A stretch of DNA of 64,000 nucleotides from a bacterium (GTDB lineage: Bacteria; Myxococcota_A; Bradymonadia; Bradymonadales; Bradymonadaceae): the NCBI GenBank assembly GCA_030427705.1, contig JAUIBR010000002.1, forward strand, positions 156,631 to 220,630, in the 5' to 3' direction. The notes below the pieces were generated by a model. The model did not search any database. It was not told the DNA's origin and was given only the letters and a program-made list of their open reading frames with translations. This document shows, in pieces, positions 17,120 to 61,125 of the stretch. The position numbers and the translations under genes are program-made. Numbering within the stretch: the stretch's first letter is position 1; every line of letters starts with the position of its first letter.

Positions 17120-19066
17120 ATGACCAGACTTGAAAGGCGAAGTTCGACCATGGAGTCCAGACGCAAAAGCCGGGGCTTTCTTCCACACCGTATCACACTG
17201 TGGGTTGGGGTTTGCTGTATCATCGCGATCGGCTTGTTGGATAACCGGCCAGTCGACGTCGATGTCGACATTCCATCGGCCGATCCGGTCGAGCTGACGC
17301 GCGACTCGGAGTCCGATGTCGTCATCGTTTTGGACTACCAAGCTATCAAGTCTTCTCCAGACAAGTTCTCAAAAAAGGACTTCAGCGCGGCATGGATCAA
17401 CCTTTTTGAGCAAGAAATTGGTCCTGTGACGATCGCGACACCGGGTTCGCTTTCGCAGAAGATGTTGGACAAGGCGCAGGTGCTGGTCCTGACCTCGAGT
17501 GCGTCCGACGTGCCGGAATCTCTTGTAAAACGGCTGCGCGAGCGCGTGCTAGACAACCGGATGTTGTTGGTTCAAGAGCGCCCCAAGGGTGAGCTCCGCG
17601 ACCGATTTGGAGCAAATGCCAAGGTCGGCTCGCAGGGTGCTGATGGTTTCACGTTCGCGCGAGATTTGCCCGAACCGTTCAATCGACAATTACTCGCCAC
17701 GCCTTTGTCGACCGAGTACCTCGGGTCTACGACCGCGCGCGAGCGTTCAGAAACCCTACTTTCAATCGACGGCGCACCCGTCATCTATGCCGAGAAGATC
17801 GGCAAGGGCACGATCATCACAATTGATTTTGACCTTGGTGAAGCGCTTGTTTCGCTGCAGCAAGGCAAGCCCAGCGATGACTTTTCGGTGCACCCGAAAG
17901 GCGAATGGCCGAAGACGTCGGACCTCGTGCTGAACGAGACGCTCAATGGCAGCGATGTCCCATTTGCGGACCTGCTTGAGCGGTTCATCGTGCATGGCGT
18001 CGTCGGTCGCTACCGCCCTCTGCCCGCATTTTGGCTCTTTCCCAATGGCGCCGATGGTGCGGTCATCCCGATCCACCCTGACGATGCGCTGGGTGACAAA
18101 GCGACGTGGATGCTCCGACACGAAGTCACCCACAAAGCAACCTCAACCTTGTTGACGACCTTCGACGCCGGAATGACAGCGTCCGAGGCAGCCGTCGCCA
18201 ACCGACTTGGCGGTGAGCTCGGTTTGATATGGAGAGTCGAAAACTCACCTTCCGCCAGACTTGAGTCGTTTGGTGTCGGCGCATTGCAACCGTTTGCGCG
18301 CGCAGCATCCCTTGAGAACCAATTCCAAGCGGTCGTGGAAACGAGCCCATCCGAAGCGTTGTTCACCGGGATGACGCACGAGCGCTGGTGGTCGGATGAC
18401 TGGAGCGCACCATTTCGTGCGTTGGTGACCAAGAGGGTTCGAACCGATGTCTCGTACGCCAGTGAGTCGCGTGGCTATAGTTTTGGGACTGGATTGCCCT
18501 ACCTGGCTTTGGACAACAGCGGCCTTCCACTGTCGATCCGCGAACAACCCGTGATCCTTCCAGAGCGAGCGACGACCGGGCCTGAGCTCGAGGAATTACT
18601 TGAGAAAAGTCGGGGCGGACACCATCAAGCGATTGGCTGGAGCTTGAGTCCTTCGTCGTTCTCGTCGCTACCAGAAATGCAACGGTTCGACGCCTGGGTT
18701 GATAGTTTTGAGGCCGCCAAGCGCCACAATCACTCGATCATGAGCGTTCGACGCCTGGACGTCTTCCTGCGCTCCCGTCGTGCTGGTGTCATCACCAGTC
18801 AGATTGTCATTGAAAACCAACCCGACCAGCCTGAATCCCGCATTCTGCGTATCACAGCGGAAGCCAAGCGTCGGGGCATGCATTTGATGGTGCCGAAGAA
18901 CATCTTCAACAAGCCACTCTACAAAGTTCGTCGAGCCGCGAATCGTGTAGGTGATGAGCTGGTCAGCGGTGAGATTGAAGTGCGCGATGTCAGCTATGTT
19001 GGGTATCCAATGGCGCTGATCCCATTGGACTCTGGCTTTAACTCGATAGACGTGGTGTATCGCTGA
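17120..19066 (+). CDS. Membrane-anchored 648-aa protein, paralogue A; function unknown (possibly carbohydrate-active)
   Basis: N-terminal TM (ITLWVGVCCIIAIGLL). Blocks shared with the downstream paralogue: FGTGLPYLALDNSGLPL..., RSRRAGVITSQ, PLPAFWLFPNGADGAVIPIHPDD. Confidence 0.6.
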   Translation: MTRLERRSSTMESRRKSRGFLPHRITLWVGVCCIIAIGLLDNRPVDVDVDIPSADPVELTRDSESDVVIVLDYQAIKSSPDKFSKKDFSAAWINLFEQEIGPVTIATPGSLSQKMLDKAQVLVLTSSASDVPESLVKRLRERVLDNRMLLVQERPKGELRDRFGANAKVGSQGADGFTFARDLPEPFNRQLLATPLSTEYLGSTTARERSETLLSIDGAPVIYAEKIGKGTIITIDFDLGEALVSLQQGKPSDDFSVHPKGEWPKTSDLVLNETLNGSDVPFADLLERFIVHGVVGRYRPLPAFWLFPNGADGAVIPIHPDDALGDKATWMLRHEVTHKATSTLLTTFDAGMTASEAAVANRLGGELGLIWRVENSPSARLESFGVGALQPFARAASLENQFQAVVETSPSEALFTGMTHERWWSDDWSAPFRALVTKRVRTDVSYASESRGYSFGTGLPYLALDNSGLPLSIREQPVILPERATTGPELEELLEKSRGGHHQAIGWSLSPSSFSSLPEMQRFDAWVDSFEAAKRHNHSIMSVRRLDVFLRSRRAGVITSQIVIENQPDQPESRILRITAEAKRRGMHLMVPKNIFNKPLYKVRRAANRVGDELVSGEIEVRDVSYVGYPMALIPLDSGFNSIDVVYR

Positions 19067-21012
19067 TGGCTAGTCGTACACGAAATTCAGTGTTGTACGC
19101 ACTGCGCTGGGATATCGCCGCAATCGCGATCCTGACGTTCCTCGTGGTCACCTACGATTGGTTGTCCCAGACGCGGGTTCGTGAAACGCCAAGCGAACTC
19201 ACTGCTGGCAGCCGTCCCCCCGATCGCACAGAGGGCGATATCCTGCTGCTTTTGCCGGATACGCCAAGTGCTGAAGCCAACCACATTAATGAGCTCGATT
19301 GCTCGTACAGCTGGTTCAATACGCTGTGGCAAGAGTACGGCTCGTTTGCGACCGCCCTCACCCGCGACCTTAGCCCCGAGATTTTAGCGGGCCGCACGCT
19401 AGTCATCGTGCCTGCACGTGTCGCGCGTGACATGCCAGCCAATGGCGTTCGGGCACTGGAATCGTTTGTAAAACGTGGTGGCAAACTCATTGTCGAGCGT
19501 CCAAACGAACAATGGACCTCACTGGCATCCGTCTTCACGACGGGCAAGGACCGACACGCCAGGCAAATCACGTCGGTGGAAGGTCTAGAACTGCGGGGTT
19601 CGATTCGTGACGACCTTCTCACCGTGCCGCTGACCGGATTGATGACCGCTGCGCCCGATATGGAGCCGTACCCAGACGGTCCATTATTGCTAGAGGTAGA
19701 CGGGCAAGCGGGCATCGTGCGCCAGGAGATCGAAAAAGGCGAAGTCTTCAGCTTCCTCTACAACCACGGCTGCGCGACTTTGGCGCTACAACAGGGGCGC
19801 CCAGCTGCGGAGTCGATGACCTTCAAGGGTAGTTCGGCAGCGGAGCGTTCGATTCACGTCGAAGAGTTGAGCAATCGCATCCCGCACGCTGACCTTCTGG
19901 ACCGTGCGATCCTTCGACGCGTAACGCGCGACCGCCCCACGCCTCGATTCTGGTACTTCCCATCGACCTTTTCGGGCGCGATGATCATGACTCTGGATGC
20001 GCCGGAAGACTTCGCCAGCGCGTTGTCATTCGCAGATTTGGCGAAGAAACGCGAAGGCGCAACGACCATCTACGTCGCCGCCGATCGGCTTGATGACACG
20101 CAGGCCGCGCTCGCGCGCAAGACCGGGGCCGAGATTGGGTTGTCTTGGGTTCGCGGCGTGAACCGACCGTTCGTGACAGAATCGGTTGGTATCGGGGGAC
20201 TGCGCCCTGTCGCAACGGAGTTGGACTTAAACGCACAATTCACGCGGCTAAATCTCACGCTGCCGGATTCTGAACCGCTACGACTTGGCCGGGTAGAAGA
20301 ATCGATGATGCAACCCGACTGGGCGTCGACATTCCGCCAGCTTGCGGCCGCGCGAGTTCGGATGAGCTCCACATTGGGTCCAACCAAACGCGACCAATGG
20401 GGCTATCTGTTTGGAACGGGTTTCCCGTTCTACCCGCTGGACGATCGCGGACTTCCGCTCCCGATGCTCGAGTCGCCGTTCGTCATGTCTGGTGCCAGTT
20501 TGAGCCGCCCGCGATTGGAGTCACTCTTGGGCCGAAGCGAAGGTGGCGACTTCCAGGTTCTGGTTCTCTCGATTCCGAGCGATGTCATGGCGCGCGCCCC
20601 GTCCGCAGGGGTCTTGCTAGCATTCAAAGATGCGTTCGACCTGGCTCGCAAGCATGACCATTGGGTGGCACAGCATGGCGAACTTCTGGACTTCCTTTCG
20701 GTTCGCCGCCGATCGGTATTGACCAGCCAATTCAGCAAGGAGCAGCGCAAGCTGACGATCAGCGCAAACGTACTCGGTGCTCGGTCCATTTCGATCGAGT
20801 CGGGGTCGATTCCGAGCGTCGCGTTCCCAAAGACGTGGGATGGAGAAGGCGTCGAGGTCGTCGAACTCGACGGTGAGCCCGTGGACCTGCGAAAGTTGGC
20901 CCAACGCGGCAGTGAGTACGTCGTCGAAGTTGGCATTGGGCGCCACGTTCTGATGGTTCAGTACGCGGAACCCAAGGCCCTAAAGATCGACGAAGAAGCG
21001 GCTAATGAATGA
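19066..21012 (+). CDS. Membrane-anchored 648-aa protein, paralogue B; function unknown
   Basis: ATGA overlap with paralogue A at 19066. N-terminal TM (IAAIAILTFLVVTY). Matches A at FGTGFPFYPLDDRGLPLP, VRRRSVLTSQF, PRFWYFPSTFSGAMIMTLDAPED. Same length as A. Confidence 0.6.
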   Translation: MASRTRNSVLYALRWDIAAIAILTFLVVTYDWLSQTRVRETPSELTAGSRPPDRTEGDILLLLPDTPSAEANHINELDCSYSWFNTLWQEYGSFATALTRDLSPEILAGRTLVIVPARVARDMPANGVRALESFVKRGGKLIVERPNEQWTSLASVFTTGKDRHARQITSVEGLELRGSIRDDLLTVPLTGLMTAAPDMEPYPDGPLLLEVDGQAGIVRQEIEKGEVFSFLYNHGCATLALQQGRPAAESMTFKGSSAAERSIHVEELSNRIPHADLLDRAILRRVTRDRPTPRFWYFPSTFSGAMIMTLDAPEDFASALSFADLAKKREGATTIYVAADRLDDTQAALARKTGAEIGLSWVRGVNRPFVTESVGIGGLRPVATELDLNAQFTRLNLTLPDSEPLRLGRVEESMMQPDWASTFRQLAAARVRMSSTLGPTKRDQWGYLFGTGFPFYPLDDRGLPLPMLESPFVMSGASLSRPRLESLLGRSEGGDFQVLVLSIPSDVMARAPSAGVLLAFKDAFDLARKHDHWVAQHGELLDFLSVRRRSVLTSQFSKEQRKLTISANVLGARSISIESGSIPSVAFPKTWDGEGVEVVELDGEPVDLRKLAQRGSEYVVEVGIGRHVLMVQYAEPKALKIDEEAANE

Positions 21013-41107: not shown

Positions 41108-44100
41108 TTACAATCCATCAAGTTCTTTGGATCGCAATCGCACGTCCAGCCACTCGCCGAGCTGAGGATCCGCGGCCCGAATCTGATGCACCAACCAATG
41201 CACATCTGGATGCACGAAGTTGGTCTTCATCAAGATTTCGTCCAACTCATTGAGAGAGCTCACTTCTCCGATGCCCATCTTCTGATGGAGCATGACGAGG
41301 TGGGGCACCAACTTCAGCTGTAGCGCGAGCTTGGGACCAAACTCGTCCAAGGCTTGGGTCGCCAGCCGAAGCGCTTCATCGTTGTTTCCGCATCGAAGCT
41401 CCATCACGGCCTGACGGGCCACGACCAAGCCAGCCAAACTGGAGTTGCAGTCCATGAAGGAGCGTAGGGCAATCTGGTAGTGCTCGCGCGCGTCATCGAA
41501 CTGTTTGCGGAGTGCAAACCCATCTCCGATCGATTTCAACGCCATGCCCGCAGCAGACAAGGACCCGGCCTTTGTCGCATATTCGTAGGCCTGCATTGCA
41601 TATGGCAGACCGTCGGGGTTGCCTTCACGTAACCACACGTCAGCAAGCCCCTGCAGAGCCCATGCATAGTCGATGTCACTGCCACCAAGCTCTGCGAGTT
41701 CGGCGGAGTTTGTGTAACATTCAACCGCCCCTTCTCGGTCTCCGCGGTTGAGACGGAACCAACCCTCACCATGAAGGATTTTGGCCAAGCCGATTTGATC
41801 GCCGATCGACTCGAAGATGGCCTTCGCGGTCATGTAGAGGTTGAGCGCATCCTGGTATTCGCCGCGTACGTAGAGCAGGCCCGCAATCGCTCGATACGCG
41901 TTTGCCACGGCCTGTTTGTCGTCACATGTTGCGCAAGCCTCGCGAAGTTCTTTGGCGACCGAATCACCGTTTTCGAGCTGTCCGACAAAACGAAAAACTT
42001 CGACGCGACGGGTCTGTGCTTGCAGGGACTCAGCGGCGTTACTGGGCGTCGAGATGGTTTGATCGATCTCACGAATGCGGTCCAACAAACGCATCGAGGC
42101 GCGGTAATCGGTCTGACGCATGAGCTCGTCGACGGCCAGCAAGTACTGTTGGCGCGCCTCTTTGAGACGTCCGGCGTCGTACAAAAACGTCCCGCGACGT
42201 TGCGCAGCAGGCACGCCGTTGGCGGCGTCTTCAAGCTCCGCATTCGCACAAGCGATGAGCACATCTGACCATCGCCCCGCGGACTGCGAACGACGTTTGA
42301 TGAGGTCCACCAGTGGTGATTTGGCGAACGCCCAACCGTCGGGGAAAACGACCGCCAAACCCTCGAGTTCCATTCGCACCGCGAGTCCTGAGGGAATCTC
42401 AATTCCGAGACAATTCGCCGCCGAACCCCACTCTTCGTTGGAGATATCTCCACCCAAGGCCACGGCGAGTTCCAATGCAGGCGCCGCTTCTTCGGGAAGC
42501 TCAGAGAGGATATCTCGAAGTCGGTTCTCCCATAGTTCTCGAAACTCTTCCGTTAGCTGGTCGCTTTCGACACGGAATCCGTCCTGCGTTGCGACCAGCT
42601 CTTCGTTCGAGATCCAGTGAGCAACCAGCTGTTCAGCCGCTTTGAACTGCCCCATCGAGCGGTGCATCAGGAAATTGCGCGACCCTTCATCCAACGGAAT
42701 CAATCGGGTCAGATAGTCGCGGAAATCGGATTCACCGACCTCGTCGATTTGCAGCGTTGGGGCATCGAGTGACTCTTCCCAGCCGCCAGCTCGCCCAGAC
42801 ACAACCACGAATGCGTTCACGGTTCGCCAGCGAGCCAAGAGGGCTGCGAACGCAACAGCGTCCTCGCCCCACTGGGCATCGTCGATCCACACGAATACCG
42901 GTCTGCGCGCCGAAACGAACTCAAGGACCCGAGCGAGTACGATATGGCGTTGATTTGGCGACTCGAACTGAATCGCAGGCGCCGATAATGGCACCTCGTC
43001 CCCCATCAACAACATCACGCTGGCGGCCAATTCATCGATGGAGACGTCAGCTCCCCACAACCGCAACGACTCTTTGACGAACGCAAACATCTCTTTCGAG
43101 CCCATGCCTTTGCACGGCAGGAGTTTGCGCATCAATCGCGGGATACCTTCGTCGCTACTGGATGACTGCGTATGTCCGGACCGAATCGCGTGATGCACGA
43201 TTCCAAGTTCCATCGCGCGCCGCGCCACCCACTGGATGCAACGTGTTTTGCCAACCTGGGCATCCCCGATGACCTTCATGAAGTGCGGCCCACCTTCAAG
43301 AGCGTCACCTAAGGCAGACCACAGGCGCTCTCGTTCGGCTTCACGATTAACGAACGGGGGCGGCCGCAGTCCAAACAAATTCAGGCCGACACCGCTCAAG
43401 GTCGGAAGCTCAGGTTCTTCGCATCGCCAATCGACGAACGGGGCGCGTTCCGTCGATTCTTCTTGGAGTCCGCGATGGTCAGAGCTGAGCACTTCCACAC
43501 GTCTAGAAACGTTGATTTGCTGCGTGTCGCTGTAAGTCAGAGTCGCGAAATGGGTAGAGGACTTCCCGTCGCGCGGCTCGATCGAGTCCGACTCGTTCAG
43601 ACTTTTGGAGGGAACCCACTGACCACGGCATAACTCGGTCAGATTCCATGCAGCGTCAGCCGCGCATTGGAACCTCTGGTTGATGGCTTTCTGCACCAGC
43701 TTCTGCAGCCATGCTTCGAACTTGGGGGGGACGGGAAAGAGCGGTGCGAGTTTCGGAAACGGATCTTGTAGATGTTTCATCCCAACTGCGAACGGTTGCC
43801 CGGCCACAAACGGCGCCTCACCGCAAGCCAATTGGTACACGACACAGCCCAACGCGTAGAGGTCAGTCCACGGACCATACCGCCGCCAATCACCACGAAA
43901 CTGTTCCGGAGCCATGAACGCAGGGGTTCCCGCCGTTGACGAGCTCAATGCAGCAGGATCCAAGGTCATCGTCGGATCGACCACATGGGAAATGCCAAAA
44001 TCCGTCAGCAGCGGGTAGTAGCCATCCTGGTCTTCACCCAAGAGGATGTTATCGGGCTTCAAATCACGATGGACGACGCCTCGCGCGTGGGCGTACGCCA

Positions 44101-44461
44101 GCGCATCGAGCACGTCGAGAACGAGTCGTGAGAGCTGCCCCCAACTCTCCAGTTGTTCGGGGAGCGCACCAACAGCCAATTCCATCGCAAACCAAGGCGT
44201 GCCCGGCTTGTAGTCATCGGATGTGACATTTTCGGGGATTCGGCCGACATCGATGATGTTGACGATGCCGCGATGGTTCAGCCCCGCAACCGCACGAATT
44301 TCGCGCTCAAAACCTTCGATGAATCGCGTGTCATTCGCCTTCTTTCCGCGGACGGTTTTGATGGCGACCTCATACGGGGAGTTCTTGTGCGCGGCGCGCC
44401 AAACGTCGCCCATGCCGCCGCGACCGATCCTCTCCTCAAGTATGAACTCGCCAATTCGCAT
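41108..44461 (-). CDS. Ser/Thr protein kinase fused to STAND P-loop NTPase and TPR array
   Basis: Kinase motifs GRGGMGDVW, AIK, HRDLKPDNILL, DFG, APE. Walker A GDAQVGKT follows near position 390. The C-terminal ~450 aa are TPR-like. Confidence 0.85.
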   Translation of the reverse strand: MRIGEFILEERIGRGGMGDVWRAAHKNSPYEVAIKTVRGKKANDTRFIEGFEREIRAVAGLNHRGIVNIIDVGRIPENVTSDDYKPGTPWFAMELAVGALPEQLESWGQLSRLVLDVLDALAYAHARGVVHRDLKPDNILLGEDQDGYYPLLTDFGISHVVDPTMTLDPAALSSSTAGTPAFMAPEQFRGDWRRYGPWTDLYALGCVVYQLACGEAPFVAGQPFAVGMKHLQDPFPKLAPLFPVPPKFEAWLQKLVQKAINQRFQCAADAAWNLTELCRGQWVPSKSLNESDSIEPRDGKSSTHFATLTYSDTQQINVSRRVEVLSSDHRGLQEESTERAPFVDWRCEEPELPTLSGVGLNLFGLRPPPFVNREAERERLWSALGDALEGGPHFMKVIGDAQVGKTRCIQWVARRAMELGIVHHAIRSGHTQSSSSDEGIPRLMRKLLPCKGMGSKEMFAFVKESLRLWGADVSIDELAASVMLLMGDEVPLSAPAIQFESPNQRHIVLARVLEFVSARRPVFVWIDDAQWGEDAVAFAALLARWRTVNAFVVVSGRAGGWEESLDAPTLQIDEVGESDFRDYLTRLIPLDEGSRNFLMHRSMGQFKAAEQLVAHWISNEELVATQDGFRVESDQLTEEFRELWENRLRDILSELPEEAAPALELAVALGGDISNEEWGSAANCLGIEIPSGLAVRMELEGLAVVFPDGWAFAKSPLVDLIKRRSQSAGRWSDVLIACANAELEDAANGVPAAQRRGTFLYDAGRLKEARQQYLLAVDELMRQTDYRASMRLLDRIREIDQTISTPSNAAESLQAQTRRVEVFRFVGQLENGDSVAKELREACATCDDKQAVANAYRAIAGLLYVRGEYQDALNLYMTAKAIFESIGDQIGLAKILHGEGWFRLNRGDREGAVECYTNSAELAELGGSDIDYAWALQGLADVWLREGNPDGLPYAMQAYEYATKAGSLSAAGMALKSIGDGFALRKQFDDAREHYQIALRSFMDCNSSLAGLVVARQAVMELRCGNNDEALRLATQALDEFGPKLALQLKLVPHLVMLHQKMGIGEVSSLNELDEILMKTNFVHPDVHWLVHQIRAADPQLGEWLDVRLRSKELDGL

Positions 44462-48208: not shown

Positions 48209-48769
48209 ATGGAACATGTTTTTAAAGGTACGACAATCGCCCTGGTTCAGGGCGACATCACGACAGTCGAAGCCGATGCGATCGTGAACGCGGCAAACTC
48301 TTCGTTGATGGGCGGCGGTGGTGTCGACGGCGCCATACACCGAAAAGGTGGACCCACGATTTTGGACGAGTGTCGCGACTACGTTGCTGCTCACGGCAGC
48401 TTACCTACTGGCGAAGCGATGATCACAACGGGAGGCGACCTTCCCGCTAGCCATGTGATTCACACTGTTGGTCCGGTCTATCAAGGCGGGAAGCACGGCG
48501 AATTCGTGAAGCTTGAGCGCGCCTACACTCAGTCGCTGCTACTGGCGAAAGAACACGGGTTGAAAACTGTCGCGTTTCCATCCATCTCGACCGGCGCGTA
48601 TCGCTTTCCGATCGATGAAGCCGCCTACGTTGCGCTGAACACCTTGAAGCGGGTAATCGCCGAACACGAAGGCGCGTTTGATCGCCTTTCGATGGTGTTG
48701 TTCTCCCAAGCTGACTTTGACGTCTACGCCGCAACCTTCGACGAGGTCATCACGACGATGATGGGCTGA
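48209..48769 (+). CDS. Macro-domain protein (O-acetyl-ADP-ribose deacetylase, YmdB-like)
   Basis: IALVQGDITTVEADAIVNAANSSLMGGGGVDGAIHRKGG...AFPSISTGAYRFP carries the full macro-domain signature. Confidence 0.9.
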   Translation: MEHVFKGTTIALVQGDITTVEADAIVNAANSSLMGGGGVDGAIHRKGGPTILDECRDYVAAHGSLPTGEAMITTGGDLPASHVIHTVGPVYQGGKHGEFVKLERAYTQSLLLAKEHGLKTVAFPSISTGAYRFPIDEAAYVALNTLKRVIAEHEGAFDRLSMVLFSQADFDVYAATFDEVITTMMG

Positions 48770-52261: not shown

Positions 52262-53296
52262 ATGTCCACCGTCCCTCCTGAGATAAACCGTTGGGTTGTC
52301 CTTCCGATTTCCGGTGGTCTCTGGGTGTGCCGAGACGACATGGGCATGATGAAGCCCGAGTTTCCGCTTACGTTGGAAACTGAGGACGACGCCATCCTGG
52401 AGAAACGCGAGGTCCCGGGCGTTCAAGATGTCGCGGTAAGTTCGACGTCGAGCTACGCGGCGGTCCGAAGTCAGGGCGGGAAGGCGTTGCACGTCTACCG
52501 ACTTGAGGAAGAGACCGGGACCCCCGTCCACATTGCGCTTCCAAGGGATATGGAGCGTGTCCGATCCGCGGCATTTTATGGTGATCGACTCTTTGTTGGT
52601 GGCCAACCTCAGACCAACCCTGCCACACGGCTTGGTTTTTTCGACCTGACCCAAAACAAGCCGCGGTTCACACCGTTAGACCTGCCCGACTCACTTGGGA
52701 TCGTGAACAAGCCGGTCGTAAAAGTGGTTGTTTCAGGCGACAAATTGTACGCGATCGATACGTCGTTTACGCCCAAGCTTGCGCTTGTTTACGACGTTAC
52801 GCGTGACGATCCGGAGCTCCTCATTCAAACCAGAATTCCGAGCGGCGTAGACGACAACGTGTTGGATATGGCGGTGGGTCGCAGCTATGCAGCCGTCCTC
52901 AGCGAAACACGCAGCAAGGAGGGCAAGGCATGGAAAATTGGTGTCTTCGATTCCCACACCTTCGACGAAATCGCCACGTTCTTCCATCGTGTGCAATGGT
53001 CTGACACGCTCGCCGTCCCCAGCCAGATCGAGGCGATGGACGACGTTTTCCTGTTGGCACACGGGCTTGAAGGATTGGGCGTGGCTCGGTTGCAGGACTC
53101 AGAGCCAACGTTGTTTCAGAAGTACTATCCGATCCAACCATGGAGCCATCCGTACCTGCCGCTGCACCGCATCAAGTATGTCCAACCGCTGGGTCCTGGT
53201 CGTGTGATTGGTCTGCAGCCGAACTCGATTTCAGGCAGCGTATTTTGCGTGATCAAACGGGGCTCGTACCTGTGGTGGGAAGAGATCAAGCTGTGA
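52262..53296 (+). CDS. Hypothetical 344-aa protein (beta-rich, possible propeller), translationally coupled to the Ntaq1-like gene
   Basis: No signal peptide. Repeated strand motifs (RLFVGG, KLYAID, YAAVLS, VFLLAHG). Stop TGA at 53294-53296 overlaps the downstream GTG (GTGA). Confidence 0.5.
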   Translation: MSTVPPEINRWVVLPISGGLWVCRDDMGMMKPEFPLTLETEDDAILEKREVPGVQDVAVSSTSSYAAVRSQGGKALHVYRLEEETGTPVHIALPRDMERVRSAAFYGDRLFVGGQPQTNPATRLGFFDLTQNKPRFTPLDLPDSLGIVNKPVVKVVVSGDKLYAIDTSFTPKLALVYDVTRDDPELLIQTRIPSGVDDNVLDMAVGRSYAAVLSETRSKEGKAWKIGVFDSHTFDEIATFFHRVQWSDTLAVPSQIEAMDDVFLLAHGLEGLGVARLQDSEPTLFQKYYPIQPWSHPYLPLHRIKYVQPLGPGRVIGLQPNSISGSVFCVIKRGSYLWWEEIKL

Positions 53297-53799
53297 GCTC
53301 GGCCCTCCCCTACACGCCGTATTTCTGTGAAGAGAACGCCTGGCATCGATGCAAGGCGGACGAGACGGGGCATGCGGTGTTTATCTCGAACGAGCTGCGT
53401 TGCTGTCCCATGTGGTCTCAGCGTGCAGCACCTGAAGGCGAGCCTGTGTTCTGGGACTACCATGTGATCTTTGTCGCGGCTGACGGGAAGGTTTGGGACC
53501 CCGATCACACCGGCGGCATGCCGGTGTCGTTGCAGGATTGGCTCTCGCACACCTTTCCGTTCTTCGAACAAACACGGCCCCCATACCTTCCGATGTTTCG
53601 CCCGATCGAGGCGCATACTTATGTCGAAGTCTTCGGATCCGACCGTTCGCACATGAAGGATGAGATGGGCGAGTGGCTGCAGACTCCGCCGGATTATCCG
53701 TGCATCGGCAGCGATATGACGCTGCCCAGGCTCTGGGATTCCAACGACCCTTGGCCGTCAGCGTGGGTCGACCTCACCGGACTGCTCAGCATCTTCTAA
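53293..53799 (+). CDS. Protein N-terminal glutamine amidohydrolase (Ntaq1/WDYHV1) homologue
   Basis: Trimmed from the 53140 ORF to GTG 53293. YFCEENAWHRC, AVFISNE, VFWDYHVIFV, FGSDRSHMKD and PPDYPCIG match human NTAQ1 blocks YCEENIWKLC, AVFISNE, VIWDYHVVLL, ASDRSHMKD and PPPYPCIE. Catalytic Cys and His are conserved. Confidence 0.75.
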   Translation: MSSALPYTPYFCEENAWHRCKADETGHAVFISNELRCCPMWSQRAAPEGEPVFWDYHVIFVAADGKVWDPDHTGGMPVSLQDWLSHTFPFFEQTRPPYLPMFRPIEAHTYVEVFGSDRSHMKDEMGEWLQTPPDYPCIGSDMTLPRLWDSNDPWPSAWVDLTGLLSIF

Positions 53800-54177
53800 A
53801 TGTTTGTCCACCATCTTATGTCGATGGACCTCTACCTGCCCGGCGTATGCGGCGAGGCCTGATGCTGGATCAACGATCTCGGGCAAGGTGTTCGTTGTTT
53901 CTTCGCTGCCGGACGCGGTGATCGTCATGCCTTCGAGGTCGATCTCCATCATCATCTCTTCCATGAGCATTTCGTGCTGCGAAGCCGTGTGAATACGCGG
54001 CAAACGGACCCGCCGACCACTCATATACCCAAAACCACCGCATCCACAGCCGCTGGTACCGATGCCGGACATCCCAAGGCTACCGTAAAACTCTTCGTCC
54101 GTTTGGTGGATGTCTTCATCCAGATATCCACAACCGATAAACAGCAGGCAGAGTGGTACAAGTAGCAGATGTCGCAT
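53758..54177 (-). CDS. Small Cys/Gly-rich lipoprotein
   Basis: ATG 54177 gives MRHLLLVPLCLLFIGC-GYLDED. The mature part carries SGCGCGGFGYMSG. Confidence 0.45.
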   Translation of the reverse strand: MRHLLLVPLCLLFIGCGYLDEDIHQTDEEFYGSLGMSGIGTSGCGCGGFGYMSGRRVRLPRIHTASQHEMLMEEMMMEIDLEGMTITASGSEETTNTLPEIVDPASGLAAYAGQVEVHRHKMVDKHLEDAEQSGEVDPR

Positions 54178-54368
54178 GGCTTCCTCGTCAAGTGGTTCTG
54201 CGGGGAAAGACAGCGTCCGAACCACAAAGTTCCGAGAAAAACCAAAATTTTTTTCACCCGTTTCGCGAGGTCGTCCGTAGTGGTTGAACATTATCGACGA
54301 TTCATTAGAATGCGTGCGCCATTCAGATGTATGCAAGCCCCCTACAAGGGCCGAGTTTAGGTTACACT

Positions 54369-56870
54369 ATGAACTTCCAGTTGCGGGCGTTCTTCGCTCT
54401 TCTCATTTCGTTGCTTTTGATCGGATGCGGTGATGACACTGCGGAACCCGGCACCAAATCTTGTGATTTTGGGGAACGATTGAATCCAATCACCGGTCAG
54501 TGCATTCCGGTGCAGACGGCGAACAACGTTAACAACGTCAACAACGTCAACAATCAGAATAACGTCAACAACGTTAACAATCTGAATAACGTCAACAACA
54601 CGAACAACGTCAACAACGTCAACAACACCAACAACATGAACGACATGGGCATGGACGACGGTGTGAGCGAGCGTTGTGACCCCGCGTTGGACTCCGATAA
54701 TGACGGCCTGACCAACGACTGCGAGTGCATTCTGGGCACGTCCAGCTACGAGATGGACTCCGACAATGACGGCTTGAACGACAACGTTGAAGACGCAAAT
54801 GGCAACTGCTCAGTTGACCCAGGCGTTGAAACCGACCCTCGCAGCGCCGACACCGATGCCGACGGCGCAACGGACAGCGAAGAGATCGCAGCCAACTCGA
54901 ATCCACTCGATCAAGACTCCGACGATGACGGTGTTTTGGATGGTGCAGAGATTGCGTCCGGCTGCATGGACCCTAACTCCGAAGACACGGACAACGACAC
55001 GCTGCCAGACTCGGTGGAAGACGGCGACCTGAACGGCCAAATCGGCAACTGCGTAAATCGCGTGTACAACCCGACCTGTGCGCTTGGTGAAAGCGACCCG
55101 TGCCAGGCCGACACGGACGGCGACGGAACGCCCGACGTCGATGAAGCGCAGTACCGCGCATGCCGCCCCGAAGACACGAATAACCTCGCCACGCCAAACC
55201 TCTTGTTGAACATGGTTGGCGACTACCAACTGGCATACGATTCAGGCGTGACCACGTCGGTCGTTACATCAAGCGGTGGTGCGGTCGAAGCACACGTCTT
55301 CGAAGATATCACCCACAAGTACACCGGATTCATCGCGTCGCTCACACCTCCAGGTGGTGAGACGCTGCCAAGCCGATTGGATGACCATATCGTCAGCGAA
55401 ATGCAGGCACTCTACCCGAGCGCAGTTCGACGCGTCGGTGGGCGACAGGTGACGACGCATGACGGCTTCAAAGCCAACGTGGGCGCGATCGTCGATTTGC
55501 CAAACAACACCGCGCTGCACACGGCACGCGACACGATCCTTGCCCGCCTCGCAGGGCAGGCACCTGGAAACCTTAGCAACACGCTGACGGGCACGCTCAA
55601 CGGCAACAACTCGGAACCAACGCTCTTGGTCTACGAAGTTATCGCCCGTAGCCAGACGCAATACATCGTCGTTGGCGCAGTTGTCACTCTTTCTGACTAC
55701 CAAAATGACGCTGCCTTCTCAGGCATCCGGGTCGATGACCTCACCGGTGGAACCGCTGTCGCAGGCTCCATGGAAATGCTCACTGTCGATTGCGTTTCGT
55801 ACCGCGTGACGGCCAAACCAAAAGTTGACGTCATCATCTCGATCGATGGCTCAGGCTCGATGAGCGACGAACAGGCTGCATTGCAGAACTTCGCCGTCGA
55901 CTTCACGACCTTGCTGACTAACTCGAACCTCGATTGGCGGACCGCTGTGACGCGTCCGGATTGCGGAAGCAACGCGGCGTTGTCGCAAGAGGCACAGAAC
56001 CTGTTTGGCGGCGCAAGCTGCGGACCATCGATTCCGATTTCGATTCCTGGCTTCCCAGGCATCGGCGGTGACACCGGCGAGCTCGTCAACGGCGACTTCA
56101 CGGCAGACCCAATGGAATTGCGGCGACGATTGGACCCAGGTGTGTTCTCGGGCGGAGGTGAGTACACCATTTCTGCCCTGACCGCCGCGGCCGACCGCGC
56201 GCTGCCTCGTGACAACCAGAATCCAGCGAAATTCCGTGAAGATGCTGCGGTTATTCTGATTGCCATCACCGACGAAGAGGACGAGTTCTTCCAAGACGAC
56301 CTGTCGTTCGGCAACACCAGCAATATCACGCTGACGATGGCCGAGCAGACGGAGCTCGAGAATAAGACGTCGGATTGGGTCAACTTCCTGCTTAAACCTG
56401 AGCTTGGCGCGACCGCATTCGGTATCGTCTGGCCAACCGGTGAGCAGTGCCAACCTAACGGTTCGTTCGTGGCACACGCAGTGTCCCACATCGCCAACGA
56501 AACCGGTGGAACCGTCGGCTCCATCTGTCAGGCGGATATCACCAACACATTGCGAGTCATCGCCGAAGCCACAGCGGGTATCGCATCCGGACTGCGCCTT
56601 CGTGGTGTGCCGATTGCTCCAACCATCGAAGTCATCAACGGCTCGGCGACGACCGGCATGATCCTGCCGCTCAACCGAAGCCGTACTCAGGGCTTTGACT
56701 ACGACTCGATCGTCAACCGCGTTTCATTCACCGGCGCAAACACACCTCAAACTGGCGACCGCGTCGTGATTCCATACCGACGATGGGAAAACAGCGTGTT
56801 CGTATGTACCGCCAACGACGAATGCCCTGCCGAGCAGAAGCTCAAGTGTGTTGACGGCGAGTGCCGATGA
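54369..56870 (+). CDS. Lipoprotein with thrombospondin type-3-like Ca-binding repeats and a VWA domain
   Basis: MNFQLRAFFALLISLLLIGC-GDD then an NNVNNVNNVNNQNNVNNVNNLNN... linker. Repeated DxDxDGxxDxxE units (DSDNDGLTND, DTDADGATDSEE, DSDDDGVLDGAE, DTDNDTLPD, DTDGDGTPDVDE). VWA MIDAS is VDVIISIDGSGSMSDE. Confidence 0.6.
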   Translation: MNFQLRAFFALLISLLLIGCGDDTAEPGTKSCDFGERLNPITGQCIPVQTANNVNNVNNVNNQNNVNNVNNLNNVNNTNNVNNVNNTNNMNDMGMDDGVSERCDPALDSDNDGLTNDCECILGTSSYEMDSDNDGLNDNVEDANGNCSVDPGVETDPRSADTDADGATDSEEIAANSNPLDQDSDDDGVLDGAEIASGCMDPNSEDTDNDTLPDSVEDGDLNGQIGNCVNRVYNPTCALGESDPCQADTDGDGTPDVDEAQYRACRPEDTNNLATPNLLLNMVGDYQLAYDSGVTTSVVTSSGGAVEAHVFEDITHKYTGFIASLTPPGGETLPSRLDDHIVSEMQALYPSAVRRVGGRQVTTHDGFKANVGAIVDLPNNTALHTARDTILARLAGQAPGNLSNTLTGTLNGNNSEPTLLVYEVIARSQTQYIVVGAVVTLSDYQNDAAFSGIRVDDLTGGTAVAGSMEMLTVDCVSYRVTAKPKVDVIISIDGSGSMSDEQAALQNFAVDFTTLLTNSNLDWRTAVTRPDCGSNAALSQEAQNLFGGASCGPSIPISIPGFPGIGGDTGELVNGDFTADPMELRRRLDPGVFSGGGEYTISALTAAADRALPRDNQNPAKFREDAAVILIAITDEEDEFFQDDLSFGNTSNITLTMAEQTELENKTSDWVNFLLKPELGATAFGIVWPTGEQCQPNGSFVAHAVSHIANETGGTVGSICQADITNTLRVIAEATAGIASGLRLRGVPIAPTIEVINGSATTGMILPLNRSRTQGFDYDSIVNRVSFTGANTPQTGDRVVIPYRRWENSVFVCTANDECPAEQKLKCVDGECR

Positions 56871-57811: not shown

Positions 57812-57960
57812 CTCGCATATATTTTCGACTTATCACGTCTTTTTACCCATAACTCACATATATTTACGACTTATATGAAACATGTGTTTGATATTTAACT
57901 CGTATTAATTTACGATTAAAGCTGAATTTACCGTTTTACTCGCACTTATTTACGACTTAT
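57812..57960 (+). promoter_or_regulatory. Low-GC hipBA upstream region with four ~23-bp direct repeats (consensus ACTCGCATATATTTACGACTTAT); candidate operator array/promoter
   Basis: Copies at ~57813-57835, 57853-57875, 57900-57921 and 57938-57960. Spacing is 40, 47 and 38 bp (about four helical turns). The last copy ends in the hipB ATG. The region is ~32% GC against a ~59% background. Confidence 0.5.
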
Positions 57961-58282
57961 GAACGCAGAAACCTCACTCCAACAAGTTGCCCAGCGTCTG
58001 CGCCAACACCGAATCAACCGGCAACTCACCCAGGCTGAGCTCGCCGAAAAGGCCGGGGTCACGAAGCGAACGATCGAGAATTTGGAGAGCGGGAAGTCCA
58101 CGCAGTTTCTGACCGTGCTGAGGACGATGGAGGCTCTCGACCTACTTGAGAACATCGATGTCGCCATTCCGGAGGTCCCCGTCAGCCCCTTGTTGAAGCA
58201 TGCGCGGGACGGGGAGCAGCCACAAAGGGTTCGAAAATCCAAGCCCACGGCCGACACCGAATGGTCATGGGGGGATGAATGA
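57959..58282 (+). CDS. hipB: HipB-like XRE-family HTH antitoxin
   Basis: LRQHRINRQLTQAELAEKAGVTKRTIENLESGKS is an XRE HTH. 107 aa. Stop overlaps the hipA start (ATGA). Confidence 0.8.
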   Translation: MNAETSLQQVAQRLRQHRINRQLTQAELAEKAGVTKRTIENLESGKSTQFLTVLRTMEALDLLENIDVAIPEVPVSPLLKHARDGEQPQRVRKSKPTADTEWSWGDE

Positions 58283-59568
58283 CCACGGCTGCAGTCCGGC
58301 TTTGGGGCCGTCAAATCGGCGCGGTGTCGACTGTAGACGACCGCGACTACTGTGCATTTCAATACACGCCAGAGTTCGCAGCGAGCGGGATCGAGGTCGC
58401 GCCAATCTCGATGCCTCTGTCCAACCGAATCTACACATTCCCTGCCCTGTCCCGGACGACGTTCAATGGCCTACCCGGCCTGCTGTCCGACTCACTGCCC
58501 GACAAGTTTGGCAATCGACTCATCGATGTATGGCTCGCAAACCAAGGCCGGAAACCCGAGTCCTTCAACGCAGTCGAGCGGCTTTGCTATATCGGAAGCC
58601 GCGGTATTGGCGCGCTGGAGTTTGAGCCAGCGGTCGGTCCAACCACCGCAAGTGAACACTTGGAAGTTGCACAATTAGTTGAGCTCGCATCCACGATTCT
58701 CACGCAACGTGAGACGCTGTCCGGTTCGTTCGAAGACCCAGCTATGCGAGCAACGTTGTCCAGCATCCTTCGCGTCGGCACATCCGCCGGGGGCGCCCGT
58801 GCCAAGGCGCTCGTCGCATGGAACCCGGACACCGGCGAGGTACGCTCGGGGCAGATCGATGCCGAGGGATTTGGCTACTGGCTCCTGAAATTCGACGGGG
58901 TTTCAAACAACCGCGACAAGGAGCTCGCCGACCCGAAAGGCTTCGGTGCGATAGAGTATGCCTACTATCTTATGGCGACCGCCGCTGGCATCGACATGAT
59001 GGAATGTCGCCTGCTTGAAGAAGGCGGAAGACGTCATTTTATCACCCGCCGGTTCGACCGGCCTGATGGGCATCGGCTGCATATGCAATCCCTGTGTGCG
59101 ATGGCCCACTTCGACTTCAACGACGCCGGAGCTCATAGCTACGAACAGGCCTTTCAAGTGACTCGTGACATCGGTCTTTCCAAGGTCGACGTCGAGAAAC
59201 TCTACCGGCGTATGTGCTTCAACATCGTGGCCCGAAACCAGGACGACCACGTGAAGAACATCGCCTACTTGATGGACCGACACGGAAACTGGTCTCTCTC
59301 GCCCGCGTACGACATGACCTACAGCTACAACCCGCAGGGGGCGTGGACCGCTCGCCATCAGATGTCCATGAATGGCAAGCGCAGTGACTTCACAAAAGAC
59401 GACTTCGTGGCAAGCGCCAGGACGGCCGGATTGCCCCAAGGACGGGGCGCACGAATCCTGGACGAGGTCCGAGAGGTTGTAGGAGAGTGGAAAAGCTTCG
59501 CCAAGGAGGCGCGCATACCCGCTAAGCGATACAACGCCATCGCAAAAACGCATCGATTGTCATTCTGA
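58279..59568 (+). CDS. hipA: HipA-family Ser/Thr kinase toxin
   Basis: HipA N-terminal coupling domain, then the catalytic motif ARNQDDHVKNIAYLMDRHGNWSLSPAYD (HipA_C). 429 aa. Confidence 0.85.
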   Translation: MTTAAVRLWGRQIGAVSTVDDRDYCAFQYTPEFAASGIEVAPISMPLSNRIYTFPALSRTTFNGLPGLLSDSLPDKFGNRLIDVWLANQGRKPESFNAVERLCYIGSRGIGALEFEPAVGPTTASEHLEVAQLVELASTILTQRETLSGSFEDPAMRATLSSILRVGTSAGGARAKALVAWNPDTGEVRSGQIDAEGFGYWLLKFDGVSNNRDKELADPKGFGAIEYAYYLMATAAGIDMMECRLLEEGGRRHFITRRFDRPDGHRLHMQSLCAMAHFDFNDAGAHSYEQAFQVTRDIGLSKVDVEKLYRRMCFNIVARNQDDHVKNIAYLMDRHGNWSLSPAYDMTYSYNPQGAWTARHQMSMNGKRSDFTKDDFVASARTAGLPQGRGARILDEVREVVGEWKSFAKEARIPAKRYNAIAKTHRLSF

Positions 59569-61125
59569 TTCGGAATCCGATGACATGCCCAACATGTCGA
59601 ACTGCCACTCGTGGCCCATGTTGGCGTCGGTGATGGTCTCGTAGTCTTTGGCCAAAAACTTCATACGCTCAGCCGACACGAAGTTTCCTTCTTGAGCATT
59701 CATTTCTTCCATCAGCTCATCGATATGCGCTTTGTGCTCAGGAATCGCTGGGTCGTAAACGGGTTTTCCGTCGATCTTGAATTGCTCCAAAATCCCGCGC
59801 CAACGCTCAGTGTCGGGCTTGATCTCGTGGTCGGAACAGATGCCGCTTCGCATGTACGCGACGCAGTGATCGTACACGTTTAACATCGACCGCAACGCCC
59901 GCTTGGAGCCGGTCGTATTAACCATCACAATCCCTTTCGGATTCAGATGGTCTTTCATCAACTGCATGAATTCTTCGCTCAACAACGTCGACGAGAAGCC
60001 GCGCTGGTGAAATGACGTGTTGCTAATGATTGCATCGAACTTTCGATCGTTGGTGTGCATCCAACGACGGGCGTCATCCTCAACCAGTTCAACCTTGGGA
60101 TGGTCCAGCAACACCGCGCTCTCGGGGTATTTGCTGATGAGGTCGAAGTACCCAGGACTGATCTCGATGATCGTGACTTTTTCGATGCCAGGGTGTTCGA
60201 CCAGTACACGCGACCAGGAACCCGTAGCCATGCCAACGACAAGCACGGTCTTCGGGTCTTCATGAAAGGCACTCAGCGAATATGGCCGCACGATCCCATT
60301 CACATCATCGATGAGGTCGATGCTGAAGGTGCCGTCGTAGACACCGCCCCCGATCGCGACGTCCTCTTCGTCCACCGCGATGAAGCCTGACTTGGTCTCG
60401 AAGACGTATTTGAACTCTTGGGATTCGTACTCGGGACCGTAGTAGAGCTTCTCGAGCATGCCGCTGTAGACCGTGCCCGTGAGCCCAACAACAACCGCAA
60501 TACACGCCACGAGCGCTCCCGCCGCGCCGGCGAGCTTCGCCTTATCGGGGCGTGTGCTCGCGAATAGAACAAACGCCAAGGCGAGTCCGATGATCGTTAG
60601 GACCATCGCGATGGAGGCCGTGGACGCCACATCCAACCAAATGAATCCTGTGATGAGGCTGCCTCCAACCGAGCCAGCAATATTAGCCACGTACACGTAC
60701 GACAGACGTGACCCGACGTGCGAGTCTGCGGCGATGCCGTAGTGCATCAACACAGGCAGCTGCGCCCCGAAGATGCATGCGGCACCAAACACAAAGTAGA
60801 GCGCGGTAAACCCGGGTATTGCAACATGGAGTGTCACCAGCCATGCCATCGCCGGAATCACCAACCAACCAGCCAGCGCCCCGCCTCCGATGAACATCGC
60901 GAGCGAGCGCAGGGCTTCAGGCGAATACGTTGCCTTTCCGTTTGTGAAGCGTTTCGACCACTTTGCGCCGAGCGCGATACCGGCCAGGAACAGCCCAAGC
61001 AACATCGGAAACGCCGCAGCAGAACCGGCGGTGCTCCAGGTAAACAGGCGAGCCCAGAGAATCTCGTACGAGAGGCTGATGAACCCAGAGGCGAAGGACA
61101 GTCCCAGGACGATAAACCAGGTCAT
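59560..61125 (-). CDS. Spermidine-synthase-like aminopropyltransferase with N-terminal 7-TM domain
   Basis: N-terminal TM helices. C-terminal SpeE-like methyltransferase fold (VLVVGMATGSWSRVL, KVELVEDDARRWM, FDAIISNTS). Confidence 0.55.
   Translation of the reverse strand: MTWFIVLGLSFASGFISLSYEILWARLFTWSTAGSAAAFPMLLGLFLAGIALGAKWSKRFTNGKATYSPEALRSLAMFIGGGALAGWLVIPAMAWLVTLHVAIPGFTALYFVFGAACIFGAQLPVLMHYGIAADSHVGSRLSYVYVANIAGSVGGSLITGFIWLDVASTASIAMVLTIIGLALAFVLFASTRPDKAKLAGAAGALVACIAVVVGLTGTVYSGMLEKLYYGPEYESQEFKYVFETKSGFIAVDEEDVAIGGGVYDGTFSIDLIDDVNGIVRPYSLSAFHEDPKTVLVVGMATGSWSRVLVEHPGIEKVTIIEISPGYFDLISKYPESAVLLDHPKVELVEDDARRWMHTNDRKFDAIISNTSFHQRGFSSTLLSEEFMQLMKDHLNPKGIVMVNTTGSKRALRSMLNVYDHCVAYMRSGICSDHEIKPDTERWRGILEQFKIDGKPVYDPAIPEHKAHIDELMEEMNAQEGNFVSAERMKFLAKDYETITDANMGHEWQFDMLGMSSDSESE

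Follow-up and report, generated by a model that had tools for sequence, protein, structure and literature searches.

A gene for a bacterial NTAQ1-type amidase and the gene directly upstream of it, which encodes a predicted and so far unannotated beta-propeller, form a real, conserved operon that is probably translationally coupled. Both genes lie on the forward strand of a 64-kb window (the whole stretch of 64,000 nucleotides analysed here, positions 156,631 to 220,630 of contig JAUIBR010000002.1 from a Bradymonadaceae genome, assembly GCA_030427705.1). The upstream gene, here termed X (52262–53296, +), runs from an ATG at 52262 to a TGA at 53294–53296 and comprises 344 codons for a predicted cytoplasmic, seven-bladed protein. 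The downstream gene (53293–53799, +), predicted to encode an N-terminal glutamine amidohydrolase of 168 amino acids, starts with a GTG at 53293–53295 and ends in the same frame with a TAA at 53797–53799. The amidase start and the X stop thus share the tetranucleotide GTGA at 53293–53296 (+), and the coordinates given for this overlap in the original prediction were exact. What is new here is the conserved pairing of a bacterial NTAQ1-type amidase with a dedicated, unannotated propeller, which we tentatively interpret as a binding module for the enzyme.

Conservation of the gene pair and its junction

The paired form is very rare, which limits the scope of the finding: homologues of X formed 13 clusters among 5.8 billion, and a metagenome scan with the X alignment gave one locus. 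Genomic context was recovered for 11 distinct X-bearing lineages, in which X is 33–80% identical. The amidase gene lies directly downstream of X in nine of them, namely the window, L003, L005, L006, L007/L008, L009, L014, L015 and L016. All nine pair-bearing lineages carry an RTGA junction (GTGA in five, ATGA in four), which persists even though the last codon of X varies between CTG, CGA, ACG and GCG. At the corresponding position, both X lineages without the amidase (L004 and L017) read CTGA. The same pattern was seen in those lineages of the GC-rich clade whose X ends in arginine: the terminal codon is CGA, giving ATGA, in all four of them that keep the amidase and CGC in the one that lost it.

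The pair occurs in two clades whose immediate flanks are unrelated to each other. A lower-GC clade (54–60% GC) is flanked by genes for Lgt, a Cu-ATPase and a small lipoprotein, and the GC-rich clade (63–70% GC) by a TPR gene, a gene for a PolX-type DNA polymerase and a Pkinase-AAA_16-TPR gene. Between the clades, identity falls to 33–39% for X and 35–45% for the amidase. From one pair of lineages to the next, the identity of X rises and falls with that of the amidase (r = 0.88), which fits vertical inheritance of both together, and within clades X is more conserved than the amidase.

Overlaps of four nucleotides were found in four of the 31 same-strand neighbour pairs of the window (based on a longest-open-reading-frame gene call), so that in a single genome such an overlap is no more than expected by chance. 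The meaningful signal is its conservation in nine of nine pair-keeping lineages. The original prediction had described a translationally coupled pair with stoichiometric co-expression. Its first part stands insofar as the two genes have stayed together across lineages and share a start/stop overlap, the coupling itself being deduced from sequence. The second part was overstated: an overlap of four nucleotides points to co-transcription and probable coupling by reinitiation, not to a 1:1 stoichiometry.

Start codon of the amidase gene

Initiation of the amidase gene at a distant in-frame ATG would make the overlap irrelevant, as the original prediction had pointed out, and the mechanical list of open reading frames indeed runs the amidase frame back to an ATG at 53140 (−153 nucleotides). 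This start is not conserved. In-frame stop codons precede the overlap start by 57 nucleotides in L003 and by 114 nucleotides in L006, and because the upstream extension is thus unavailable in relatives, the distant ATG was rejected. Position 1 of the Pfam model PF09764 aligns with residue 7 of the GTG-started amidase, and homologous amidases begin 4–9 residues ahead of a Y-x-x-x-x-C-E-E-N motif. The amidase start is therefore placed at the overlap or at most 21 nucleotides from it.

Two in-frame GTG codons at −21 and −18 (53272–53277, +) provide a possible alternative start, the first at 53272–53274 and the second at 53275–53277. Every lineage has an in-frame start at −21, which is GTG except in L015 (ATG), and L003 and L015 also share the second one at −18. 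However, the −21 start exists in all lineages because the Trp-Trp codons of X (TGGTGG) are invariant, so that its conservation is uninformative on its use. No Shine-Dalgarno (SD)-like sequence was found upstream of it. If used instead of 53293, this GTG would likewise overlap X, by 25 nucleotides.

A purine-rich, SD-like stretch, GGGAAGAG (53277–53284, +), sits 9–16 nucleotides ahead of the GTG at 53293 and may serve in ribosome binding. Its counterpart in the GC-rich clade is GGGAGGAG, where the SD-like core ends 11–13 nucleotides before the amidase start, which is far from optimal. The stretch is coded by the conserved Trp-Glu-Glu codons of X, part of the run WWEE, and no other SD-like element was seen. 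Since the motif is kept also in lineages that lack the amidase, its constraint acts at the protein level. The distance of the core from the start favours termination-reinitiation: a ribosome that ends translation of X would re-initiate on the overlapping GTG or ATG, coupling amidase translation to that of X via the RTGA, and the distant GGAGG or GGAAG inside the WWEE codons would at most help re-initiation. A scan for promoters and terminators gave nothing above shuffled expectation.

The amidase as a bacterial member of the NTAQ1 family

The 168-residue product matched Pfam family PF09764 with 137 bits (gathering cut-off 27; E 7e-40) over model positions 1–153 of 184, and human NTAQ1 (4W79) matched it at E 7e-27. 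Residues C12, H57 and D71 align with Cys28, His81 and Asp97, the catalytic triad of the human enzyme (PMC4214742). The corresponding codons are TGT at 53326–53328, CAT at 53461–53463 and GAT at 53503–53505 (all +). Alignments of 16 and of 35 homologues show no variation in the triad or in the CEEN, WDYHV and DRSHM motifs. In the fold test, the amidase showed the alpha-beta-alpha sandwich of the solved NTAQ1 structure. The predicted protein is thus clearly a bacterial member of the known NTAQ1 family and an orthologue-grade relative of eukaryotic NTAQ1 with its triad intact. Specificity for deamidation of N-terminal (Nt-)Gln, as opposed to N-terminal Asn or internal Gln, would presumably hold for the bacterial members as well.

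A search of the amidase family returned 71 clusters, eukaryotes included, and a single-sequence genome scan returned four loci; most of the family occurs without X. A neighbour-joining tree of 82 amidases was star-like, with eukaryotic sequences mostly grouped apart and the X-linked amidases in three groups inside the bacterial part. The tree supports a claim of neither monophyly nor multiple origins for the X-linked enzymes.

Fold and family of X

Neither Pfam nor NCBIfam gave a match to X at E<=1, or to ten of its relatives at E<=0.1. Modelling from a 13-sequence alignment gave an all-beta structure with a predicted local distance difference test (pLDDT) score of 87.8 and a predicted template-modelling (pTM) score of 0.88. 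The model contains 27 strands, and seven repeats of a hydrophobic strand motif could be read by eye from the strand list and the alignment. The strands are arranged as seven four-stranded blades about an axis, and X is confidently predicted to be a generic seven-bladed beta-propeller. These results bear out the earlier description of a beta-rich protein with blade-like repeats and no recognisable family. The sequence signatures of named repeat families (WD40, Kelch, PQQ, NHL, LVIVD, YncE-type and others) were not found in X, and inspection of the N-terminus revealed no signal peptide.

The alignment of X has 45 invariant residues, among them the charged residues D96, R123, D166, K172, D178, D198, R207, K222, K225, D230, D235, E236, D261, D279 and E340. 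By our own blade assignment, the invariant polar residues concentrate at positions 94–300, approximately blades 3–6. The N-terminal 10–40 residues are the least conserved and were modelled with the lowest confidence. The motifs FTPK, SG[IV]DD, GKAWK, DE[IV][AS]TF, [RQ]PW and WWE characterise what we regard as a small, unannotated propeller subfamily founded by X.

A profile search of 1.84 billion representatives returned eight close and about 230 distant representatives, most of 300–400 amino acids and none belonging to a Pfam family. They define a new propeller family, so far without annotation, that counts about 230 cluster representatives. In a few of the distant members, the X-like region is joined to a protein kinase, FHA or LysM domain. 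One outgroup member, P0094, was obtained from a mixed-alignment search for distant relatives, and no amidase was found near its locus.

Structural neighbours of X include peptide- or degron-binding propellers (beta-TrCP, DCAF12, FBW7, WDR5 and the clathrin terminal domain) as well as enzymatic ones (hydrazine synthase beta, virginiamycin B lyase and CylK). Identity to any of them is at most 16%, with no preferred relative. Several more specific assignments were tried and rejected. A propeller-type glutaminyl cyclase (PF05096) gave no Pfam match, and the X model has seven blades, like its best neighbours, versus five in the cyclase. Homology to N-recognins (ClpS, UBR box, ZZ or Gid4-type) found no Pfam match either; the neighbours of X are generic propellers, and the N-recognins have other folds. 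Neither X nor the amidase matched anti-phage defence families (PADLOC) at E<=0.1.

Possible roles of X

We propose the following model. The X-amidase operon would be inherited as a two-gene unit within a small bacterial group, presumably Myxococcota-like. The amidase would most likely hydrolyse the side-chain amide of N-terminal Gln on peptides or proteins, leaving N-terminal Glu. X would be a soluble propeller that most likely acts as a binding module alongside the amidase, and might do so by choosing certain substrates, by presenting them to the enzyme, or by anchoring or controlling it. Some physical or functional contact between the two proteins would be part of this model. In favour of a binding module we count the fusions of family members to kinase, FHA and LysM domains, the polar invariants in blades 3–6 and the peptide-binding propellers among the structural neighbours, as well as two precedents, the eukaryotic Nt-amidase targeting complex and papain-fold hydrolases under the control of a propeller such as USP1-UAF1; all of this support is indirect. 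Overall, we regard a binding module that selects or presents substrates, or regulates the amidase, as a reasonable working interpretation that falls somewhat short of probable. The suggestion in the original prediction that X is a substrate-recognition partner, analogous to an N-recognin, is plausible.

Several observations weigh against a binding module for the amidase. Five amidase loci from other bacteria, representing four distinct lineages, lack X within 4.5–5 kb upstream and 5–6 kb downstream of each amidase. These are two Myxococcota metagenome-assembled genomes (MAGs), a Verrucomicrobiota MAG, a gammaproteobacterial MAG and P0015, the last of which is the closest relative of the window's amidase (46% identity). 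X is thus not needed by the enzyme in general. Conversely, X is still well conserved in the two lineages without an adjacent amidase (L004 and L017), so that it may have a function of its own. The similarity of X to other propellers is generic and does not specify a function, and no X-amidase fusion was present among 233 family matches. A clpS, clpA, aat, bpt or ATE-type gene was found neither in the window nor in the flanks of 10 related loci. Conservation of the pair, which the original prediction had named as a check, holds when viewed from X, with the amidase following it in nine of 11 lineages, and fails when viewed from the five X-less amidase loci. Because the linkage is one-sided, X is a lineage-specific accessory rather than a general subunit.

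X could itself be an enzyme of the same pathway (a lyase, cyclase or hydrolase type) acting before or after deamidation, with an active site of a metal or acid-base type inside its central tunnel and no role as a binding partner. The 45 invariant residues, many of them acidic or basic, would suit such a site, and so would the stronger conservation of X relative to the amidase, its retention where an adjacent amidase is missing and the enzymatic propellers among its structural neighbours. However, none of the invariant residues is a His or Cys, no enzyme family matched even at E<=1, and enzymatic propellers match X no better than WD40 scaffolds do. Moreover, the fusions within the family involve signalling and binding domains and none that is catalytic. 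We consider an enzymatic role unlikely.

The two genes could also share a conserved operon for economy of expression only, with unrelated functions and an overlap that is a by-product of a compact genome. Four-nucleotide overlaps are indeed frequent in the window, each gene occurs without the other (the amidase in other bacteria, X in the two lineages without an adjacent amidase), and parts of the wider synteny recur, namely the Pkinase-AAA_16-TPR gene and a spermine-synthase-like gene. In contrast, the two clades, whose immediate flanks differ fully, have both kept the pair with its exact RTGA although X is only 33–39% identical between them. Likewise, the amidase stands next to X in nine of 11 lineages though both families are rare, and the third base of the junction codon tracks the presence of the amidase. 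An arrangement without functional connection is therefore also improbable in our judgement.

That X is the substrate itself, as the original prediction had alternatively proposed and as genetic linkage alone would suggest, is scarcely credible, because the residue after Met in the 13 homologues (S, T, D, W, V, E, F or M) is never Q, the family alignment has no conserved Gln or Asn column, and the N-terminal 10–40 residues are the least conserved of the protein. Methionine aminopeptidase, which is specific for small residues, would not expose a Gln.

Comparison with known systems

The closest known system to the amidase is eukaryotic NTAQ1 (human C8orf32/WDYHV1; PDB 3C9Q and 4W79; PF09764). Compared with it, the window's amidase is about 35 residues shorter, lacking the N-terminal lead and having a shorter C-terminus. 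It is also bacterial, its gene follows that of a propeller within an operon, its activity is a predicted one, and no arginyltransferase or UBR-type machinery is known or was seen near it.

Cysteine hydrolases of the papain/transglutaminase fold that depend on a dedicated partner include USP1, USP12 and USP46, whose partner UAF1 (WDR48) is a WD40 propeller, and vasohibin, which is paired with SVBP. Each of these combines a Cys-His-Asp hydrolase with a non-catalytic partner, which is a propeller in USP-UAF1; the likeness to X and the amidase is one of analogy, with no sequence relationship. NTAQ1 has itself been classed in the papain-like superfamily (PMC10318531). Propellers that act as degron or peptide receptors (beta-TrCP, FBW7, DCAF12, WDR5 and the Kelch-type KLHDC2) have seven blades, like X, belong to its structural neighbours and use their top face to recognise short peptide motifs, either terminal or internal. 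In eukaryotes, Nt-amidases act within multi-protein targeting complexes whose partners hand substrates on (PMC11441550). The targeting complex of the Arg/N-degron pathway comprises the Nt-amidase, ATE1 and UBR1/UFD4, so that its partners are a transferase and E3 ligases, to which the propeller X has no homology.

To our knowledge, no Nt-amidase step belongs to the described bacterial N-degron pathway, and the bacterial pathways that we know of reach no further than secondary destabilising residues, on which Aat and Bpt act. The literature that we searched likewise contained neither such a step nor a bacterial NTAQ1 or a link between NTAQ1 and a propeller, and there deamidation of Nt-Gln is described only as a step of the eukaryotic Arg/N-degron pathway (PMC4214742, PMC11441550). 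The bacterial Leu/N-degron pathway consists of ClpS-ClpAP with Aat, and of the Leu-transferase Bpt for Nt-Asp and Nt-Glu (Vibrio vulnificus). In Bpt-bearing bacteria, Nt-Glu is a secondary destabilising residue, and conversion of Nt-Gln to Nt-Glu would supply the very residue that becomes destabilising through Bpt (PMC3692480). With an Nt-Gln amidase, such bacteria would gain a tertiary destabilising level, as in eukaryotes. It is conceivable that X and the amidase are linked to a ClpS/Bpt-type route. A heterodimer in which X captures N-termini or substrates and the amidase generates Nt-Glu for such a route seems to us quite unlikely. If true, it would be the first N-degron branch with tertiary destabilising residues in prokaryotes, and the propeller would be a new kind of N-terminal adaptor. 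The locus offers a small two-protein system for asking what a bacterial NTAQ1 does, whether a deamidation branch exists in bacteria and in what way an Nt-amidase may gain substrate selectivity.

Genes neighbouring the pair and the X-less amidases

In the window, a small lipoprotein gene (53758–54177, −) points towards the amidase gene from the opposite strand and shares 42 nucleotides with its 3′ end. Counterparts are present in L003 (1913–2311), L015 (1509–1907) and L004 (1136–1564), and both the lipobox and the N-terminus of the mature protein are conserved (L[FI][IT]GCG[YF]LDEDIH). The gene is syntenic with Lgt and X in four of four lower-GC lineages, including the one without the amidase. 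Its mechanical open reading frame (192 amino acids, TTG start) is probably overlong; the form starting with ATG has 139 amino acids.

The PolX-type DNA polymerase gene of the GC-rich clade (L005 2615–4354, L006 7462–9231, L017 1944–3668) follows the amidase in L005 and L006, overlapping its 3′ end by 23–53 nucleotides. It lies directly after X in the amidase-less L017 and on the opposite strand in L007/L008. In the window, the gene for a Pkinase-AAA_16-TPR protein of about 1100 amino acids (41108–44461, −) is 8 kb away from the pair; in the GC-rich clade (L006 1500–4874, L007 1451–4873, L009 1741–5028) it precedes X by about 1 kb. A spermine-synthase-like gene also recurs (window 59560–61125, L005 4599–6752). 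The recurrence of these last two genes amounts to a loose wider synteny.

At the X-less loci of the two Myxococcota MAGs, L010 (4974–6288) and L011, the amidase gene is followed by a gene for a PrmA-like methyltransferase (PF06325, E 2e-13) with an overlap of eight nucleotides, and is preceded by a divergent GNAT (Acetyltransf_6) gene. PrmA belongs to the L11 methyltransferase family and also methylates the N-terminal amino group of L11. With the PrmA-like enzyme, the same amidase may have a partner of another kind in the modification of N-termini.

Other genes in the window

Another of the four pairs with a four-nucleotide overlap in the window consists of genes for a HipB-like helix-turn-helix antitoxin (57959–58282) and a HipA kinase toxin (58279–59568), both on the forward strand. 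Two adjacent open reading frames for 648 amino acids each (17120–19066 and 19066–21012, +) overlap by one nucleotide, have no Pfam match and may be tandem paralogues. A SIR2-family protein (2136–2903, −) and a stand-alone Macro-domain protein (48209–48769, +) are also encoded, at non-adjacent sites. An 847-amino-acid putative lipoprotein (54327–56870, +) carries a long series of NVNN repeats and, after it, bacterial TSP3 repeats rich in Asp.

A protein of 798 amino acids (30782–33178, +) contains Major Vault Protein (MVP) domains (MVP_shoulder, E 9e-19; Vault_3, E 4e-10), which makes it a vault-shell protein of eukaryotic type encoded in bacterial DNA. Next to it, a gene on the reverse strand (33175–36201, −) encodes 1008 amino acids with about 12 EGF-type domains (EGF_3, E 2.5e-109; EGF_CA, E 1.4e-91). 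Taken together, the EGF, MVP-like and NTAQ1-like domains, the TSP3 repeats and the Ser/Thr kinases make up an unusually high content of eukaryote-like domains in this window.

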